A stretch of 64,000 nucleotides of DNA, taken from positions 321 through 64,320 of the forward strand of contig DATLAJ010000108.1 of NCBI GenBank assembly GCA_035527515.1, given 5' to 3'. A program made the translations under genes and the position numbers. Position 1 is the stretch's first letter. Every line of letters begins with the position of its first letter. Source of the stretch: a bacterium. GTDB lineage: Bacteria > B130-G9. The notes under the pieces are model-generated. The model worked only from the letters and a program-made list of their open reading frames with translations. It was not told the DNA's origin and made no database searches. Shown piece after piece: positions 42,586-51,405 of the stretch.

Positions 42586-42884
42586 GCGGCGTCCAGCTCG
42601 CCGATTCCAGTTCTCGCACACCCAAATCACCGCCTTGCGGCCTGCAACCCAACACTCCTCTCCCCAAAAATGCGAAAACTCCTGCCTGAAAGAGCGCTCC
42701 CAAGAGCTCGGCGCCCAATCAGTTGAAACGGCTCGCCTCGTCAAGTAGGATGATGATTGTTTCTAGTCTCGCCGGACATAGGCGGTGGGCGCTGGAGTTG
42801 ACCTAAAAAGCTTCGTAAAGCATGGATCAGAATGGAGAGCCTTCACATCCGGCAAGTAGTAGCCACAATAAGGAGGTCGCTTAC

Positions 42885-45605
42885 ATGAGGCGCAAGATAT
42901 TCCCCATTATCTTAACTCTCTTGGTCACGTTTATGACGTTACTCCCGAGCGGTCTATCTTGGGCGAGGCACTTCAGGCTCCTCGCCTCGGGTGAGGGTTC
43001 CGAGAACCATTTTGGGGTGGCGCTATCCTTCCCCTACAAGGGCTCCGAGTCGCGGTATGGCCGCATATTGCGAGATCAGGCGTTCGAGCTTGGCGCCGCT
43101 TGGTTCATCGTCTCCCACTGGGACACTCCGCTTTCGTGGGCAGCGATGCAGGGCCAAACCAACGTGTCGGGGCAGCCGGTCTTCTCCGACGTTGACAACG
43201 AGACGCTCGAGACATTCAAGGAATGCCACGACCGTGGGGTCAAGACGCTCGTTACGCTGTCGTTCAGCAATCCGCTGTTCTATCCGGACTGGCTCTACAC
43301 TCCGGACGCGTCGAGTTCGTGCGACGGCGAGCAGAGATGGTGCTTCTACGTTCGCTCGGCCGACGATCCTGGCGGCAGGACCTCCTACGACGACGAGGAC
43401 CCCGACATAGGCCATATCGAGACGACCTACATCTGCGCGGAATGGCTTGCGAGATTCCTCAAATACTGCAAGAAGGTCGCGGAATACTACGGCCAATACG
43501 TTGACGGATGGATGGTCTGGGAGGAGGAGAACTGGGTCCCCAGCGGCAGTTCCAACGAACAGAGCTGCCTCTGCAAGTCGGAGTTCTGGAGACCGTATCC
43601 GCCTTATGCAGGCGAGGAGGACTGGAGGAAGATGACAAGGCTCTACGCTGAGATGCTCTTTAACGCGGCTCCTCTTATGAAGCGCCTTACACCTCACGCT
43701 AAGTTGCTGTTCGGCGCTACCTGCGGCTGCGACGTGCCTTACGTTGAGGCGGTCGTCCAGCAGATGGCGGCGTTAGGTGCAACGCAGGAGTTCTTCAGGA
43801 CCTACATCGATGGCTATGGTTTCCACGGGTTCCGTTCTGGCGTCTGGCGTTCGGCTGCGGAACGGTATCTCGGGGCGCCCGAGCTTGAGGTCCCCTCGCC
43901 TCATCAATACGCGCCGGACGATGACGACTACGGGCTATGCTCGATGTTCACTCACTACGCGAGCCTGGGGGCGCCGACCCAGGGTTTCTTGAAGCAGGTG
44001 GGCGACCTCAGGGCGAGAATCGGGGCGGTAACCGGTCAGGAGCCTGGCTCGATAGAGCTCTACAATACGGAGGACTGCGCTCCGTTCCACTACAATGACC
44101 CGTGCGGAGACCAGATGCGCGGCTTCGTGAGAATGGCCAAGTATCTCTCCCGATCAGACATGACCTGCTATTACGCCAACGTGCACGTTACGCACTGGCA
44201 GCTGCAAGAGGGTGATGCGGGGGCAACTGGCGCGGACTACGGCCTAATCAATAGGACGCACACGAACTCCGGCTGCACTCTCACCCCCGACAGGCCCTAC
44301 ATGTTGCCGGAGCTCCGCAGGGAGGCATACTACACGTTCCAGATGGTCGCCAGCATCTTCGACAAGACGCTGTCGCGCCTCGATCCGACATCGATTGGGG
44401 TTACTCTTTATGACAGGGCGCCTGACGAGACGCCGTTTTCGATCGGCTACCAGCCAAAACCCGAGCGTTCGGACGTTGCCACCGGCCAGCAGGAGATCGC
44501 TCTAATGCTGCACGTGCCTACGGCGGACCCGACGCGTCAGGGAGAGATACTGGTCTCGGACTGGAAAATGACTGATTTCCCGCTTGCGATCGGCAGCAGC
44601 TATCACAGCGTGCCCGGATTGACCCACGTAACGACAGACGAATCGACGAATCCCAACACGATGCCTGCATGGGTCAAAATAGACCTCGCCGCGCCTGAAC
44701 TGAATTACGACACGACTGTCCCGCCCGAGGTCTGGGAGGTTAGCACATTCCCCCAGGGCGACTTTCACACTCTCGACATATCCTGCCCCGAGAGGCCGCT
44801 TACCTACGGCGTTGACGCACAGAATCCAACCACGATAGTCATCGAGAAGACTACGGTCTCCGACTATGTGAACGTCATCGAGATCGCGCCAGCGCAATAC
44901 CCGGCATTCAATGTCGCAGGCACGCTGGACTCATATCTCAAGGTCAGCCCCGACGGCGGCATCACAGGCAACATCGCAGTCGTGGCGCTGCCCTATGGCC
45001 CATCCTTTATAGATGTCATCAGGGCTTTTTACTCAGACATTGACCTGTCGGTCTCCTTGAACGACCGCGGCGAGGGAGACGATCCTACGGCTCGCGACGG
45101 CATCTTCACGGCCAAACTAACGGCTCCGGGAACAGAGCCCGGCCCAGTAAGCAGCCTCATCGCTGACGGAGCGAAGCACCCGATAGTGTTTGGGGCCGGC
45201 ATCTCACAGAACGCGATGTTTGCGGCCGAGAGCGGCAGTTTCGTTGTAAGAGCCTACGTGTTTGACGGCGATAACCCGGCCGACCCGGGTGCGATCGCAT
45301 CTTGCAGTGCGAGAATCCCCGGAACTGCTCTTACCTTCCCTATGGTGCGGATGGCCGCGAGTTTGGGGGGCCTCGAGTCTTATGAGTGGTCAGCGAAAGT
45401 TCAGTTCGACGATCTGTCGGGCGTCGCCACGGGGCTCTATCTGGTTGAGGTGATAGCGACGGACAGCGAAGGCCTCAAGAGCGTGCCCTGGCCGCACATC
45501 CCGACCGGAGACGGCACATACATCGAGGGACTCTACTTGAACCTCCGCGTCAAGGGCCGCAGCGGCAACCTCGTGCGCTGCTGGCCGGAGCTCAGGCTCA
45601 ACTAG
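42885..45605 (+). CDS. Large secreted protein, possibly a glycoside-hydrolase-like TIM barrel with C-terminal beta-sandwich domains
   Basis: The ATG at 42885 is preceded by AAGGAGG. Signal peptide 'MRRKIFPIILTLLVTFMTLLPSGLSWA'. 'GWMVWEEENW' loosely resembles a clan GH-A 'NEP' strand. The function is speculative. Confidence 0.55.
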   Translation: MRRKIFPIILTLLVTFMTLLPSGLSWARHFRLLASGEGSENHFGVALSFPYKGSESRYGRILRDQAFELGAAWFIVSHWDTPLSWAAMQGQTNVSGQPVFSDVDNETLETFKECHDRGVKTLVTLSFSNPLFYPDWLYTPDASSSCDGEQRWCFYVRSADDPGGRTSYDDEDPDIGHIETTYICAEWLARFLKYCKKVAEYYGQYVDGWMVWEEENWVPSGSSNEQSCLCKSEFWRPYPPYAGEEDWRKMTRLYAEMLFNAAPLMKRLTPHAKLLFGATCGCDVPYVEAVVQQMAALGATQEFFRTYIDGYGFHGFRSGVWRSAAERYLGAPELEVPSPHQYAPDDDDYGLCSMFTHYASLGAPTQGFLKQVGDLRARIGAVTGQEPGSIELYNTEDCAPFHYNDPCGDQMRGFVRMAKYLSRSDMTCYYANVHVTHWQLQEGDAGATGADYGLINRTHTNSGCTLTPDRPYMLPELRREAYYTFQMVASIFDKTLSRLDPTSIGVTLYDRAPDETPFSIGYQPKPERSDVATGQQEIALMLHVPTADPTRQGEILVSDWKMTDFPLAIGSSYHSVPGLTHVTTDESTNPNTMPAWVKIDLAAPELNYDTTVPPEVWEVSTFPQGDFHTLDISCPERPLTYGVDAQNPTTIVIEKTTVSDYVNVIEIAPAQYPAFNVAGTLDSYLKVSPDGGITGNIAVVALPYGPSFIDVIRAFYSDIDLSVSLNDRGEGDDPTARDGIFTAKLTAPGTEPGPVSSLIADGAKHPIVFGAGISQNAMFAAESGSFVVRAYVFDGDNPADPGAIASCSARIPGTALTFPMVRMAASLGGLESYEWSAKVQFDDLSGVATGLYLVEVIATDSEGLKSVPWPHIPTGDGTYIEGLYLNLRVKGRSGNLVRCWPELRLN

Positions 45606-45623: not shown

Positions 45624-46670
45624 CTAATCCGGACCAGATTGACGCTCTGCTCGCCAAACGTCTGGCCAGCGCTCGCGGAAGTCCTCGTTAATGACCGACA
45701 GATCTGGCCGCATCGTGATCCGCGCCGCGTAGAAATCAATCGAGTCGCTGAGAGCGTAGCTCAGGTCCTGCCACTGAACACGGACAATATCCCCGTCATC
45801 AATCGCAAAGACCCACGGAACGATGCAGGCCGAAAGGAACTCCCGGACGGTCTTCGTTGACTTGGACCTCTCGACAGCGAGCGAGGATGCGGACTTCGGA
45901 AATGTCCGGATGGCCCGCGGCTGGCCCACGCGCGAGTTCAGCCAAAGCAGCCGGAACCCATCAGGCACGGCGCATACAGCGAGCCATTCAAAGGGCGAGA
46001 AGTCGGCGGGAAATGCCCGAACGTCGGCCGCTGCTGGGACAAGCCCCAGTGCTATGCGCCTCACCTTTCTCTTCTGCAAGTAGCACAGGCACAGATAGAG
46101 AAGGCCAAGTATGGCGCCTGCGAGCGCGAGGCCGAACCTCAGCGGGCCGGCAAATGTCGAGACAACGGCCGCCAGAACGCCAAGCCGCATCATGGGGGCC
46201 TTGATGGCGCTGTGAAGCTGACAGACTGTGCAGACCCGGAGCGACTTCTCATGACATCGCGCGTGAGAGGTCTTGGGGTTCAATCCTAACAGAAGGCTGC
46301 CGGTGAGCATCCGTCTCGAGAAGGGCCAGAACACCATCGCCCCGGTGCCGTGCATGATAAGGTCAAGGACGCAGTGGCTCGCCCCGGCCACGAGCGCGAC
46401 CAGATAGCTTTCCCAGAAACCGATACCGGGGAAGATGAGACATCCCAGCCATGCGATGACGAAACCGGCGGCCGCCACGCTCACGAGCGAGTGCGTAACG
46501 CTGTGGTGATACTTCAAGAAGTAGATATTCTTAAAGAATTTAGTAACGAAATCCAGGTCTGGCACGACGGCCGCGGCAGATGCGATCGCAACCCTGGGCA
46601 ACGTCGCATCAGGCCCCGGCAAGAGATTCGTTACCACAATTCCCCAGACGACATGCGAAACCGGATCCAT
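45624..46670 (-). CDS. Membrane-bound metal-dependent hydrolase (YdjM/DUF457-like) with C-terminal extension
   Basis: 'MDPVSHVVWGIVV...VVPDLDF...YHHSVTHSL' matches the YdjM-type N-terminus. Several TM helices follow, then about 130 aa of soluble tail. Confidence 0.6.
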   Translation of the reverse strand: MDPVSHVVWGIVVTNLLPGPDATLPRVAIASAAAVVPDLDFVTKFFKNIYFLKYHHSVTHSLVSVAAAGFVIAWLGCLIFPGIGFWESYLVALVAGASHCVLDLIMHGTGAMVFWPFSRRMLTGSLLLGLNPKTSHARCHEKSLRVCTVCQLHSAIKAPMMRLGVLAAVVSTFAGPLRFGLALAGAILGLLYLCLCYLQKRKVRRIALGLVPAAADVRAFPADFSPFEWLAVCAVPDGFRLLWLNSRVGQPRAIRTFPKSASSLAVERSKSTKTVREFLSACIVPWVFAIDDGDIVRVQWQDLSYALSDSIDFYAARITMRPDLSVINEDFRERWPDVWRAERQSGPD

Positions 46671-46742
46671 GGCCGAAAGGCTTATCAGACACAGATGCCG
46701 CCGTCAAGCACATACCGCGAGGCGCAGAATGTTGGCCTTGCG

Positions 46743-47138
46743 CCTCGGCGCTATCGGGCCGCGCCCGAGGTCGCTTGAGCGCGGGTGCGATTCTGGATTG
46801 TAGGTGGAGTGTCGCACTGACCTCGGCCGCGTTTTAACGCGGCGATATAGATGGCTCTCATTATCCTAACACCCGACTTCGAGTCGGGTGGCTTCAGAAG
46901 GCGAGGCGCCTCCTCCTCCCTCCCAGAATGCCCATGTACAGGGAAAGGATGAGGAGAGCGGTCGCGTGCCCCAGGCCGCCCCGAATGAATTCGGGGCTTA
47001 CGATCATGATAGCCTTCTCGCATCGCCTCGACTGAAGTCGGGCGATGAGGCAATGTGCAACTCATGCGTGTTGCAGACCGCGACCTGGGCGGCATCTATG
47101 TAGCCCTCATCGCATAAGCGCTGGATTACCTACAATCC
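46743..47138 (+). other. Highly structured intergenic region (candidate leader or ncRNA) upstream of the PPDK-like gene
   Basis: Perfect or near-perfect stems at 46826-46843, 46870-46890, 46978-46997, 47021-47047 and 47057-47074. Long-range pair GGATTGTAGGT (46795-46805) / ACCTACAATCC (47128-47138). Mutually exclusive pairing of 47041-47050 with either 47021-47027 or 47105-47113. Confidence 0.4.
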
Positions 47139-47227
47139 TGGGTCAAACCCATAGGTGCAAGGTGATTGATCATCGGGTCAAGCTCTGTTTTGATTATCGA
47201 GGCGCACAAAGATGATGAGCGCTTGAG

Positions 47228-50026
47228 ATGGCTTTGCGGACGAGACGAGGGCTTTACAGGCCAATCGTGAGCGGAATGGGCGACTTCGATCTTGTGAGAT
47301 TCTATCAGGGTATGCCTGAGGGTTACCTGGAATGCGACGAGCGACGACGCATCGCTGTACTTGGCGCGAAGGCGGCTGGCCTCGTGCATCTATGCGAGCT
47401 TGGGATGCCATGCCCAGACGGTTTCGTCATCCCCACTTCGGTAACCGACGAGTTCAACAGATTGAACGCCGGAGTGCTCTCGGAAGTCGATTCATCAAAC
47501 CTGCCGCCCAGCGCCGTGATGGAGCGACTGTTGCTGCCCGATAGTCTGTGGGAAGGCATCGAAAGGGGCATCCATTGGATCGAGAAGAAGAGCAACCTGC
47601 TATTTGGAGAGGTCGGGCGCCCGTTGCTTGTCTCGGTCAGGTCAGGCGGGACGGTCTCGCTGCCCGGGCTCATGGAAACCATCTGCAACGTGGGCCTCAG
47701 GAGGAAGATGTTTGGCCAGCTGGCTGACGCAGACGGACGGCAGAGATTCCTGCTTGACTCCTTCCGAAGGTTCATCGAGGGCTACGGCAGCGCGGTTTAC
47801 CGGATCAAGAGAAGACAGCTCAGGGACATACTTGGGGATCAGGGCCGCAACAGACCTGATTCTTTGGCGAAAGCGATCGATAAATATCTGGCAATTTGCC
47901 CAGTCCCCGATGACCCCTGGCTTGCGCTGCGCAGGTCCGTGATAGCAGTGATGCTGTCGGCAAGGACCGAGGAGGTGCGCGAGTTCATGCGCACCAACTA
48001 CATTCAGGAGCCTGTCAAGACCGCGGTAACCATTCAGCGAATGGTGTTTGGAAACCTCGATGCCAGGTCCGGCAGTGGCGTCGTGTTCAGCAGGAATCCC
48101 TCTACCGGCCAGCCTGCCGAGGCGCCGGGGAAAACACGACTCTTCGGACAGATTATCGTGCAATCACAGGGGGACGACGTCGTCAGGGACCTGGGCGAGG
48201 CGGGTGCCGTGAAGGACCTCCACTCGGCCTATCCTGACATCTGCAAGAGGCTCGCCGAGATCGCCCGGAAGCTGGAGAGCGTGTCTGGCTACGTTCAGGA
48301 TATTGAGTTCACGATTGAATCTGGGAAGCTCTATCTTCTTCAGGCAAGGCCGGCCAAGATGGCACCTGCTGCTTTCTTGCGGGCACAGCTGGACATGATT
48401 GAGGAGGGCATCGCATCCGATACTGACGTCATCGCCAGAACAGACCCGAGGCAGCTCGAGCAGGTTCTCTCGGCTACCGTAACCTGCACGCCTCCGGGCT
48501 CAATGAAGTTGATCGGCGAGGGCAGCCCGCTCGTGCCGGGTTACGCGACCGGCAGAGCTTGCTTCAACATTGACGAGATTAGGCAGTTCAAGTCCAAAAA
48601 CGAGCCGGTCATTTTCTGCTGTGCTCGATTACTTCTATCAGACATGGCAGCCGTGGAGGCTGCGGATGGGATCATCTCCTCGCAAAGGAATGTGCTCTCG
48701 CACGCAACGCTGAACGCACGCTATCTTGGTCGGCCAAGCATCGTCAAGGCGAAGCTCGAGATCGACCCCGTGGCCCGCACCATCAAGTATGGAGACAGTG
48801 GGATACGACCTGGGGTCCTGCAACAGGGCGACATCGTCTCAATAGACGCTCACCACGGGCTTATCTACGAGGACCAGATGGAGATCCGCATTTCTGGCAT
48901 CAAGGACCCGCTGGCAGAGCGCTTCTGCGAGCTTGTCGCTAGGCACAGCGACATAAAGGTCTATGCCCAGGTGGAGGATTATGAGACCTATGCAACGGCC
49001 AAGAGGCTCGGTGCGGACGGCGTGGCCAACTTCCGAAGTGATGTCCTTTTCTTCAAGAAATCGGTCAACTTCGCGCTATGCGACTTTGTGCTTAGCGTAG
49101 GCACGCCAGACGAGCCACGAGCCCGCAAGCGGCTACACTCACTGCTAAAGAGGGATTTCCTGCGCGTGTTTCAGACCATCGATGAGAACTACATCGCGAT
49201 CAGGCTCTGCAAGCACACGATATATGAGTATTTCCCCAAGGAGCGGTTCGATGTCATCAACCTCGCCAAGTATATCCTGAGTGCAAGGAATGGCGAGGCT
49301 CTAGAGGCCAAAGATGTGGGTCTGAGCAGCCGCCAGATCGAGAAGATGGTGAGAATAATCAGAGAGCACAAGAGACGGCAGGAGGACTACAACCCGATCC
49401 TGGGCAGGCGGGGCGTGCGGCTGGCAACGACGCTCCCACAGATTTACGAAATAGAGATTAGGGCGATACTCTCCGCCATGCAGAAGATTCAGTCTGAAGA
49501 CAAACAGATGCACGTCGAGATACTTGTGCCCTATATATGCGTTGTGGGCGAGCTCCTTTACGTGCGAGACCTCACCGACAGGATCGCGTCCGAATTCGGT
49601 CAGGCGGACCTTCACTACGATGTGGCGCCAATTGTGGAGATAAGTGGGATCGCTTTCGAGATGGACAAGCTCGCTCCCCACACCAACCTGGTGGTGATCA
49701 GGTCCGACAAACTAACGACATCCACGCACCACATCGTCCGGGAAGATGCCAGGCAGTTCCTCGGTGCATACGTTGACCGGGGCTGGTTCTACGGGGACCC
49801 GTTCAGGGTGATACAGAAAAGCACGGAGAGAATCATTAGGCACGCGGTCGAGGCCGCCAAAAGCGTCAATCCAAACATACGCATACTTGTGGCCGGAACC
49901 CACTGTTCAAACGAATACAGCCTCCGCAGGCTGCTTGACCTCGGAATCACCGAGATATGCTGCCCACCGATCATGGTCCCAGTCGCAAAGCTCATCGCAG
50001 CCAAAACAAAGAGGACAACAGCTTGA
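47228..50026 (+). CDS. Pyruvate,phosphate dikinase (PPDK) paralog with conserved ATP-grasp/His domains and a divergent C-terminal domain
   Basis: 'LLVSVRSGGTVSLPGLMETICNVGL', 'IQRMVFGN...SGSGVVFSRNPSTG', 'QDIEFTIESGKLYLLQARPAK' and 'LSHATLNARYLGRP' are PPDK-like. C-terminal motifs are altered, as detailed in the finding for this gene. The start may instead be the ATG at 47276. Confidence 0.75.
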   Translation: MALRTRRGLYRPIVSGMGDFDLVRFYQGMPEGYLECDERRRIAVLGAKAAGLVHLCELGMPCPDGFVIPTSVTDEFNRLNAGVLSEVDSSNLPPSAVMERLLLPDSLWEGIERGIHWIEKKSNLLFGEVGRPLLVSVRSGGTVSLPGLMETICNVGLRRKMFGQLADADGRQRFLLDSFRRFIEGYGSAVYRIKRRQLRDILGDQGRNRPDSLAKAIDKYLAICPVPDDPWLALRRSVIAVMLSARTEEVREFMRTNYIQEPVKTAVTIQRMVFGNLDARSGSGVVFSRNPSTGQPAEAPGKTRLFGQIIVQSQGDDVVRDLGEAGAVKDLHSAYPDICKRLAEIARKLESVSGYVQDIEFTIESGKLYLLQARPAKMAPAAFLRAQLDMIEEGIASDTDVIARTDPRQLEQVLSATVTCTPPGSMKLIGEGSPLVPGYATGRACFNIDEIRQFKSKNEPVIFCCARLLLSDMAAVEAADGIISSQRNVLSHATLNARYLGRPSIVKAKLEIDPVARTIKYGDSGIRPGVLQQGDIVSIDAHHGLIYEDQMEIRISGIKDPLAERFCELVARHSDIKVYAQVEDYETYATAKRLGADGVANFRSDVLFFKKSVNFALCDFVLSVGTPDEPRARKRLHSLLKRDFLRVFQTIDENYIAIRLCKHTIYEYFPKERFDVINLAKYILSARNGEALEAKDVGLSSRQIEKMVRIIREHKRRQEDYNPILGRRGVRLATTLPQIYEIEIRAILSAMQKIQSEDKQMHVEILVPYICVVGELLYVRDLTDRIASEFGQADLHYDVAPIVEISGIAFEMDKLAPHTNLVVIRSDKLTTSTHHIVREDARQFLGAYVDRGWFYGDPFRVIQKSTERIIRHAVEAAKSVNPNIRILVAGTHCSNEYSLRRLLDLGITEICCPPIMVPVAKLIAAKTKRTTA

Positions 50027-51405
50027 CAGCTCGCAGCCCAAGAGAAGAGCTCCGACAGCTCGTCAAGCGATATAGCCCGTTTATGGAGGCGAACAAGAAA
50101 GCTATCAGAAGCCTTGACGAGCTCGGCAAGATGTTCTCCAAGATGACGCACGTCGTTGTCCGCTCCAACGAGCCGTTCAGCATTGAAAACGTGGTCCATC
50201 GATGCAGCAAGAAGCAGAGCCTCGAGGAGATCTGCGCCAAGCTCAGCAGGCGGCTCCTGTCGTGTATGTCCAGCATCAATCTGCTAATAGAGACATACGC
50301 AGAGATCGGCGAGGCCGACACGAGCGAGATCAGGACGACCCTAGCGAACATCAGGGAGAAGTTCCTCTCCCACTTCTGGTTTCTCAAACGGATTCTTCTG
50401 TTCAACCTGTGCGACGACGTGATGTATTTCTCACAACACAGGAGGGCGTTGGGTCTTTTGACCGAGATCAGGCCCAGCGTAACCAAGTCGCTTCGGAATC
50501 CGAGGGAGGATGGCTTGGCCTCAAGCCTAAGAAGTGTCAATGAGGTCGTGCGATACCTTCACCAGAAGGGCGAGGATGCGTTTTTCGCCCGGGCGAGGGA
50601 GATGGGCGCCTCGCGGACGTTTGCGCTTGGGAACGACAACATGTTAAATCTTGTTGACCTCGACAGGCTTTTAGGAGATCGGCAAGCAGCGAAGAGCTCG
50701 CCCGTGCAGACGCTTAACGAGCCGGTGATGAGCGCGCTGCTGAGGCCCTACAAGGCGGGTGTAAAGGGCGAGGGCGCCGAGATACTGAACGTAGTTAAGT
50801 TCCGGGATATGATCGACACTCAGCTCGAGCTCGGCCTGCACAAGGCCAGACTGAGGAGCAGAATCAGCGCCAAGTCAGGCTCCAAAAGAAGCTTCATATC
50901 GCTGTCGTACTTCGAGCCGTTTCAGGCGCTTGTGTCCCAGACGCTCGGCCAGCGCGTCCGTTATTTCTCCGGCATTCTCTCACGCCTCAAGTTCACTGTG
51001 GAGACCGATTTCATCACATTCCTCAGCGCGAGCTTCTCGGGCGGCGCCGGCAAGTGCAAAAAAGTGCTTAGCGAGCTCGTGCGAGCGATGATCTCGCTCA
51101 AAGACCTTGACGAGCTCCTCTCCCAGCCGGGCAAGACGGAACAGGCGATCTCGCTCTTCTGCCAAGGAGTGAGCAACGTTCACGGCTACTTCAACGCGCT
51201 GAGGTGCCTCGAGCTTGCCATCTCAGACCAGATCACCCCCGAATCGCTGCAAATGATCTTGAGGCAAGAGGAGCTCAACCGAAGCGAGATGGACCTGCTG
51301 CTGAAGCATGACTTTCCGAAGATTGCGGCGAGGCCCAACGTTAGGCGCGAAACCACCGCCTCGCTGCGGCGTGCTCTCGATCAGATGAGGGACAGCCTCA
51401 GCTAG
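50023..51405 (+). CDS. Hypothetical all-helical protein, translationally coupled to the PPDK paralog
   Basis: The ORF frame is open from 49957. An in-frame TTG at 50023 overlaps the PPDK-like TGA stop (TTGA). The next ATG codes 'MEANKK' at about 50083. No family recognised. Confidence 0.55.
   Translation: MTARSPREELRQLVKRYSPFMEANKKAIRSLDELGKMFSKMTHVVVRSNEPFSIENVVHRCSKKQSLEEICAKLSRRLLSCMSSINLLIETYAEIGEADTSEIRTTLANIREKFLSHFWFLKRILLFNLCDDVMYFSQHRRALGLLTEIRPSVTKSLRNPREDGLASSLRSVNEVVRYLHQKGEDAFFARAREMGASRTFALGNDNMLNLVDLDRLLGDRQAAKSSPVQTLNEPVMSALLRPYKAGVKGEGAEILNVVKFRDMIDTQLELGLHKARLRSRISAKSGSKRSFISLSYFEPFQALVSQTLGQRVRYFSGILSRLKFTVETDFITFLSASFSGGAGKCKKVLSELVRAMISLKDLDELLSQPGKTEQAISLFCQGVSNVHGYFNALRCLELAISDQITPESLQMILRQEELNRSEMDLLLKHDFPKIAARPNVRRETTASLRRALDQMRDSLS

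Follow-up and report, generated by a model that had tools for sequence, protein, structure and literature searches.

Does the pyruvate, phosphate dikinase (PPDK)-like gene at positions 47228-50026 of this 64,000-nucleotide stretch of DNA (referred to as the window) encode an enzyme that interconverts pyruvate and phosphoenolpyruvate (PEP), or has its protein been turned to another use? An initial annotation proposed that the protein probably still autophosphorylates from ATP, is unlikely to form PEP, and may phosphorylate a different acceptor or a partner such as the product of the coupled downstream gene. Residue alignments, the phylogeny, the partner gene, a canonical ppdK elsewhere in the genome and a predicted complex together support this joint reading, within what sequences and models can tell. 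We lean, with a confidence slightly better than even, towards a more specific explanation: that the gene is an ancient, neofunctionalised PPDK paralog which, with an obligate partner, makes up a two-protein phosphotransfer module and is not a PEP/pyruvate enzyme.

We found that an uninterrupted open reading frame of 932 codons runs on the forward strand of the window from an ATG at 47228 to position 50026. The probable true start is the ATG at 47276 (Met17), because the homologues, which are 914-924 amino acids long, begin there. The gene and its domains are laid out as follows.

47276-50026, forward strand: PPDK-like gene, from its likely start.
47276-48427, forward strand: ATP-grasp (PPDK_N) domain, residues ~17-400.
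48500-48892, forward strand: swivelling phospho-His domain, residues ~425-555, with the catalytic His492 at nucleotides 48701-48703.
48908-50023, forward strand: remodelled TIM-barrel (PEP-utilizers_C) domain, residues 561-932.

The three Pfam domains of PPDK, namely PF01326 (PPDK_N), PF00391 (the PEP-utilizers mobile domain) and PF02896 (PEP-utilizers_C), occur in the canonical order, each above its gathering score. With a homologous mobile His domain and a PEP-utilizers_C barrel, the protein belongs to the superfamily of PEP-utilising enzymes (PPDK, PEP synthase and Enzyme I). The N-terminal, central and phospho-His motifs that had been quoted as close to those of genuine PPDK are all in place: LLVSVRSGGTVSLPGLMETICNVGL at residues 133-157, SGSGVVFSRNPSTG at 281-294, DIEFTIESGKLYLLQARPAK at 358-377 and LSHATLNARYLGRP at 490-503. 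The match to TIGR01828, the NCBIfam equivalog model for PPDK, extends from end to end and scores 518.7 bits, where the curated cut-off is 843.45, which places the protein below PPDK sensu stricto. One member of its clade has been named 'pyruvate, phosphate dikinase' by JGI, and the others are annotated as 'hypothetical protein'. A PADLOC scan matched neither the PPDK-like protein nor its partner.

Which catalytic residues does the protein keep? The register was checked with HMMER against Clostridium symbiosum PPDK (1KBL, 9PZL and others), which aligned over residues 44-927 with E = 2e-102, and a second time with MAFFT on 26 sequences, including 10 clade members and 15 canonical PPDKs; the two methods gave the same columns. 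In both, the nucleotide-site equivalents of Lys22, Arg92, Asp321, Glu323, Gln335 and Arg337 are all kept, and the equivalent of the catalytic His455 is His492, which is invariant in the clade. The three Pfam domains, the nucleotide-site residues and His492 thus bear out the proposal that this PPDK paralog retains its ATP-grasp and phospho-His domains.

The barrel gave a more complex picture. The initial annotation had aligned its motifs by eye, reading FFSFGTNDLTQ as LVVIRSDKLTT and GICGEHGG as LVAGTHCS, and both alignment methods place these motifs in the same register: N768 has become D827, D769 has become K828, and C831 has become A889, a position held by Ser in some clade members. NPMLGHRGCRL is likewise kept as NPILGRRGVRL, preserving the NPxxGxRGxRL motif of the barrel. 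The register proposed for GLCRTEHMF, now VANFRSDVLF, also holds, but the functionally important Arg561 is still present (R603), as are Arg617 (R659, in AIRL) and Glu745 (E804, in VEI), and all three are invariant in the clade. The claim that the canonical PEP/pyruvate-site residues had been lost is therefore right for Cys831 and Asn768-Asp769 and wrong for Arg561, Arg617 and Glu745: the site has been remodelled, not erased. Conservation of the catalytic Cys, Arg, Glu and Asp had been named as grounds for abandoning the idea, and rigorous alignment divides these residues, with Cys and Asp lost and Arg and Glu kept.

Two further fixed changes lie beyond those listed earlier. Asp620 is replaced by Lys (K662), and the phospho-His loop GGMTSH reads RNVLSH in the window protein and (R/K/E)N(V/M/I)(L/T)SH across the clade; the canonical GG(M/R)T(S/C)H loop is thus missing, and the window protein has lost the regulatory Thr. 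In alignments with 15-110 canonical PPDKs, N768D, D769K, C831A/S, D620K and the GG-to-RN change are fixed clade-wide. These substitutions are invariant or nearly so in 12 of 12 clade members, down to 41% identity, which is far from chance.

In PPDK and Enzyme I, Cys831 protonates the pyruvate enolate, and Asp769 and Glu745 hold Mg. These residue roles are reportedly those worked out by Herzberg and colleagues in 2002 and by Teplyakov and colleagues in 2006. The loss of Cys831 and Asp769 is therefore evidence against PEP/pyruvate chemistry. When we searched the open literature by residue name for active-site mutants of PPDK, we found no paper.

How widespread is this form of the protein, and does it stand in for PPDK where it occurs? 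A search against 5.8 billion proteins returned just ten cluster representatives of the paralog (42-96% identity), beyond which the matches fell abruptly to ~30% identity and were ordinary PPDKs. In a FastTree phylogeny of 67 sequences, the 12 clade members were monophyletic with an SH-like support of 100, and the stem that leads to them, at 1.42 substitutions per site, exceeds every other internal branch (median 0.083). This long-branched group is the distinct clade whose existence the initial annotation had raised. Contig C35 of the same genome also encodes a canonical PPDK (1382 bits, TIGR01828), and the genome has an Enzyme I-like gene. Similarly, each of the seven genomes that represent the phylum in the GTDB set, among which the named records are metagenome-assembled genomes of Candidatus Coatesbacteria, has one canonical PPDK (1374-1402 bits) and one paralog (434-518 bits, the 434-bit copy being cut at a contig end). 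A canonical ppdK, which the annotation had suggested looking for, is thus present in the window's genome and in all of its sister genomes. The regulatory protein PDRP (PF03618) had no match in the window's own genome, which is 95.6% complete.

These results bear on the simplest reading of the locus, that it encodes a genuine PPDK or PEP synthase whose active site is unusual, maintained as a second isozyme. The three-domain architecture and the full-length PPDK alignment (E = 2e-102) are what such an enzyme would show. Against this, all members of the clade carry Cys831 to Ala/Ser, Asn768-Asp769 to Asp-Lys and Asp620 to Lys, the score lies far under the TIGR01828 equivalog cut-off, every genome also has a canonical PPDK, and the stem branch is extremely long; we consider a second isozyme very improbable.

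We next consider whether the barrel is decaying or has been put to use. Comparison of the clade with 110 canonical PPDKs gives 51 alignment columns in which each side is fixed for a different residue: 37 belong to the barrel, 9 to the His domain and linkers, and 5 to the ATP-grasp domain. Inside the clade, the barrel is also the best-conserved domain, with 149 of its 372 positions at least 90% conserved. The ratio of nonsynonymous to synonymous substitution rates (dN/dS) was 0.09-0.13 in each PPDK-like domain (Nei-Gojobori, against two relatives) and 0.09-0.18 in the partner. Clade-wide fixed changes combined with purifying selection therefore indicate a changed function that was afterwards held fixed, not decay.

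What might this changed function involve? The gene immediately downstream, which the initial annotation had put forward as encoding a possible partner, has the following features, with residue numbers that follow the numbering of a 482-amino-acid open reading frame.

50023-51405, forward strand: partner gene, ~460 amino acids, with a TTG start that overlaps the TGA stop of the PPDK-like gene (TTGA).
50161-50217, forward strand: RxNEPFxxENxxHRCxKK motif near the N-terminus of the partner, residues 69-87, invariant throughout its clade; in the predicted complex it docks on the barrel.
50488-51258, forward strand: partner core alpha/beta domain, residues ~178-434, with R199, H202, H295 and R333 invariant across the family.

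The TTG at 50023 shares its TG with the upstream stop codon, and a GAGGA Shine-Dalgarno sequence lies ~8 nucleotides upstream, at ~50011. We found a partner homologue of 450-466 amino acids 3' of the PPDK-like gene, slightly overlapping or nearly abutting it, in all eight contig contexts read (the window, L005, L007, L008, L009, L010, L016 and L030), several of which have unrelated neighbours. The partner gene was also found in all seven phylum genomes. The clade therefore does always carry its downstream partner, as had been suspected: both genes occur in 7 of 7 genomes, and they are adjacent in every context read. One 257-nucleotide contig from a soil metatranscriptome run, identical to the window, spans the stop/start junction at 49831-50087. 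This junction-spanning contig is a weak hint of co-transcription, as RNA libraries can contain DNA; the remaining stretch has no RNA cover, which is uninformative either way. The partner protein had no match in Pfam or NCBIfam and no usable match in a feature search of the ESM Atlas.

At two loci, L007 (7612-7998) and L008 (7648-8004), a small open reading frame (128 and 118 amino acids, respectively, with 49% identity between the two and nothing matched in Pfam) adjoins the start of the PPDK-like gene or overlaps it. In these lineages, which are more distant, the small gene may encode a third component; the window's genome has no homologue of it.

Do the two proteins bind one another? We predicted the complex of PPDK-like residues 425-932 (the His domain and barrel) with partner residues 23-482, each supplied with its clade alignment. 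The complex scored 0.63 (0.60-0.67 over three runs), against 0.00 for the best of three controls. Of 80 solved complexes, 58 reached the mark used for this score, as did 2 of 110 mismatched pairs; these counts apply only roughly here, as the prediction was run with alignments of our own. The runs shared at least 53% of their contacts, and the predicted local distance difference test score (pLDDT) of the partner was at least 78. To our knowledge no like complex is known, and recall from solved structures is therefore an unlikely source of the prediction. This controlled prediction supports the proposal that the coupled downstream product is an interaction partner, at the level of a structural model.

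The confident contacts predicted on the enzyme side are R603 (equivalent to R561), D605, V606, F609-K611, H663, E667, 838-861, 894-895 and 913-914. They lie on the C-terminal, catalytic face of the barrel, which in PPDK is the site where PEP binds and the phospho-His domain docks. This predicted interface is enriched in clade-invariant residues (19 of 34, versus 109 of 372; Fisher p = 6e-4). On the partner side, the predicted contacts are residues 71-87 and 137-159, the first of which fall within the N-terminal motif. All partner-clade representatives carry the NEPF/HRCxKK motif, against 0 of 27 distant homologues, and the distant ones lack a barrel-bearing neighbour. The two Asp-to-Lys changes in the barrel, opposite an acidic partner motif, would fit chemically.

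The rest of the partner raises the question of what a docked protein might do. In an exhaustive profile search of 1.8 billion representatives, we found four close clusters and ~26 distant proteins, the latter matching only the central part of the partner (profile positions ~150-390). The 863-amino-acid protein P0154 carries PPDK_N at 125-437, a mobile His domain at 473-541 and then a partner-like C-terminal region; PEP synthase models match its N-terminal half as far as position ~466 of 798, and the partner-like domain thus stands in the place of the barrel. The strong link between the partner and P0154 is transitive, through intermediate homologues: a profile built from only the 15 standalone distant homologues matched P0154 at 614-857 (E = 6e-43), the C-terminal domain of a 901-amino-acid paralog adjoining P0154 (E = 3e-40) and the window partner at 178-434 (E = 2e-26), all at Z = 1.8e9. 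Moreover, R199, H202, H295 and R333 are invariant in 25 of 25 aligned sequences. By its significant profile match and its invariant Arg-x-x-His...His...Arg positions, the partner core belongs to an undescribed domain family, and the invariant Arg/His pattern would fit a phosphate-handling pocket. A word-based search with the C-terminus of P0154 added one more fusion only, P0155. A search for long partner-like proteins, as fused forms would be, found none, which is weak evidence. We set aside the 1060-amino-acid protein P0128 as a relative of the partner, since its 18 matched stretches and spurious Pfam rows look like a repetitive or compositional artefact.

The fusion genes have neighbours of their own. 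The PEP-synthase-like proteins in which a partner-like domain replaces the TIM barrel are encoded by two tandem paralogs at L015 (2666-9335) and by one gene at L037 (580-4582). Each of the three genes is followed by a phosphatase-family gene (LMWPc, LMWPc and PTP/DSPc), and in the PTP/DSPc case a receiver domain also precedes it; the position of the fusion genes beside phosphatase genes suggests a kinase-phosphatase cycle. In addition, a standalone distant homologue of the partner core (562 amino acids; L012, 5028-7689) lies directly 3' of a metallophosphoesterase gene and downstream of a nucleotidyltransferase (NTP_transf_2) gene.

Structure comparison did not place the partner core in a known family. 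The core model is of good quality by its own measures, with a pLDDT of 84 and a predicted template-modelling (TM) score of 0.83. With the full-length model, Foldseek against the PDB returned nothing at E <= 0.001, and the wide VIA search returned only coiled-coil look-alikes of the N-terminal helices. For the core alone, the best Foldseek match had E = 0.011, to RecJ/DHH proteins with TM < 0.2; the wide VIA search gave nothing at Z >= 8, with C-terminal helical rows only; and VIA on the Foldseek top 1000 peaked at Z = 6.8 (the C-terminal domain of T4 MotA), which is within background. The partner profile against PDB sequences gave noise, E = 0.57 at best. The Foldseek and VIA results for the core contain no row for RPH; a weak or missing match of this kind leaves a rifampin-binding fold possible, and we make no claim of a new fold. 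A shape search of the ESM Atlas gave TM scores of 0.37-0.55 to clusters named 'PEP synthase (fragment)', a lead only, which sequence profiles later backed.

In the two-protein module that we favour, ATP would autophosphorylate the enzyme at His492. The rebuilt, more basic catalytic face of the barrel would mainly dock the acidic, clade-specific N-terminal motif of the partner, and the swivelling phospho-His would pass its phosphoryl group to the pocket of the partner core that is lined by the invariant Arg and His residues. The final acceptor could be a small molecule, a polymer, a protein or the partner itself. Neighbouring genes offer loose hints towards the envelope and glycans, with BacA, PMT_2 glycosyltransferase, GT2 and CapD-like genes at different loci. 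More tentatively, we suggest as a possible extension that the partner core is an unrecognised acceptor or catalytic domain of swivelling-His dikinases, either fused in the position of the TIM barrel, as in the PEP synthase-like proteins encoded beside phosphatase-family genes, or acting in trans, held by its own docking motif on a fossilised PPDK barrel, and that together they form a new ATP-driven system of reversible phosphorylation which acts on a protein or polymer and not on a central metabolite. We place the pair among the swivelling-His dikinases, a known kind of enzyme, to which an undescribed family of partner domains is here joined.

Several findings weigh against the two-protein module. 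The phosphoryl and Mg ligands R561, R617 and E745 have stayed invariant in the barrel, which would be needless in a mere docking platform; the barrel may therefore still catalyse a transfer. The partner side of the predicted interface is not significantly enriched in invariant residues (9 of 26, versus 100 of 460; p = 0.086), and in the complex prediction, which covered the His domain, the barrel and the partner, the His domain makes no confident contact with the partner core. Autophosphorylation is assumed and not certain, because the Gly-rich loop is altered from GG to RN. Finally, a direct hhalign comparison of the partner clade with P0154 gives only a weak link (probability 33%, E = 4.5e-4).

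The retained ligands are accommodated by a different explanation, in which the barrel is still a second catalytic site and serves another small-molecule acceptor whose phosphorylation needs no enolate protonation (for example, a hydroxyl, a carboxylate or phosphate), with the partner in a regulatory, substrate-delivering or stabilising role. R561, R617, E745 and NPxxGRRGVRL are kept and invariant, the new residues (IRSDKLTTSTH, VAGTHCxNEYSL) show the strict conservation that an active site would have, and the barrel is the most conserved domain within the clade; from what is generally known of PPDK and Enzyme I, the loss of Cys831 removes just the pyruvate-specific step. However, partner helices are predicted to cover R603 and the face around it, where they would block the substrate as well as the docking of the swivelling domain, the Mg ligand D769 is now Lys, and such a site leaves no role for the invariant Arg/His pocket of the partner core or for its fusions to ATP-grasp and His domains. 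We regard an altered-acceptor barrel as possible, though rather doubtful.

How does the pair compare with systems already characterised? With PPDK itself (EC 2.7.9.1; TIGR01828; C. symbiosum 1KBL/1DIK, maize 1VBG), the paralog shares the domain order, ~30% identity from end to end, the catalytic residues of the ATP-grasp domain, the swivelling His and the barrel residues R561, R617 and E745. It differs in its N768D, D769K, C831A/S and D620K changes and its RNVLSH loop, in forming a separate clade, in having an obligate coupled partner and in residing alongside a true PPDK.

The closest characterised precedent for a PPDK outside central metabolism is VadK (Rv1127c) of Mycobacterium tuberculosis, which evolved from PPDK, autophosphorylates and has lost the barrel (PMC13400623). 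Its operonic partner, Rv1126c, is so tightly associated that a wash with 2 M NaCl was needed to remove it (PMC13400623). VadK and the paralog are alike as descendants of PPDK that have left PEP/pyruvate chemistry (probably so, for the paralog), keep the ATP-grasp domain and catalytic His and have an operonic partner, associated with VadK and predicted to associate with the paralog; in VadK the whole barrel is gone, whereas in the paralog it is kept, rebuilt and conserved. This precedent suggests that the PPDK-like protein could be a pseudoenzyme or regulatory histidine kinase, which autophosphorylates or just binds nucleotide and controls its partner or other proteins by binding, with no net transfer to a metabolite. 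Loss of the regulatory Thr and of the Gly-rich loop would agree with such a role, as would the signalling-like surroundings of the partner-domain fusions, which adjoin protein-phosphatase-family genes and a receiver domain. We nevertheless judge it unlikely: all three domains are under uniform purifying selection, the barrel still has a pair of strictly conserved Arg residues that bind phosphate, and the score with NF004531/PRK05878, the model for VadK-type truncated PPDKs, is 295.4 bits against a cut-off of 456, in keeping with a protein that is not truncated and has its barrel.

The two-protein module finds a mechanistic parallel in split or fused small-molecule dikinases of the HpeHI, RPH and phenylphosphate synthase type, in which an ATP-grasp domain and swivelling His serve a non-barrel acceptor domain, possibly on a separate polypeptide (PMC12167813, PMC4844700). 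In HpeHI and RPH, the Thr before the catalytic His is dispensable (PMC12167813). A hydrophobic residue replaces this Thr both there (Met) and in the window protein (Leu). These dikinases differ from the paralog in having no TIM barrel and a rifampin-binding-type acceptor domain, and in keeping the T/SxxGGxxxH Gly-rich loop that is changed in the paralog. The uncharacterised fusions P0154, its neighbouring paralog at L015 and P0155 share with the window pair a C-terminal domain homologous to the partner core, the same invariant Arg and His residues and the same kind of ATP-grasp/His module. In contrast to the pair, they are single chains in which the partner-like domain replaces the barrel, their N-terminal half is PEP synthase-like and not PPDK-like, they have an LMWPc or PTP/DSP phosphatase gene downstream (there is none at the window locus), and they lack the NEPF/HRCxKK motif.

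The region upstream of the PPDK-like gene contains a dispersed repeat of 376 nucleotides (46781-47156). Related populations lack it at this site: in contigs of two other metagenomes, position 46780 runs straight into 47157. Elsewhere and here together, the genome has ~5 copies of nearly full length (74-84% identity) besides ~25 that are partial, and the repeat looks like an insertion of the type of a miniature inverted-repeat transposable element. We rejected the idea of a dedicated leader or riboswitch here, the densely structured stretch being this dispersed repeat; an Rfam scan of 46500-47400 found nothing at E <= 1, and no leader was conserved among five loci aligned over their upstream regions. 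Further upstream, beyond a YdjM-family gene, 42822-45605 of the window encodes a 927-amino-acid protein that has a hydrophobic segment at its N-terminus and matches nothing in Pfam; L005 and L008 have a gene of ~900-920 amino acids, also without a Pfam match, at the equivalent position.

PPDK is the textbook swivelling-domain enzyme. The departures from the PPDK type that we know of either drop the barrel, as in VadK, or never had one, as in RPH, HpeHI and GWD. A barrel that is kept, with its catalytic face rewritten and predicted to hold a partner, would show one way for an active site to become a docking surface for another protein, with the ATP/His machinery put to use again. The pair also introduces an undescribed domain family, without a match in Pfam, NCBIfam or the PDB, that is genetically tied to ATP-grasp/His modules in two architectures. 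The pair is universal in a candidate phylum without cultured members, and the label 'pyruvate, phosphate dikinase', which the enzyme would at present receive, would mislead metabolic reconstructions.

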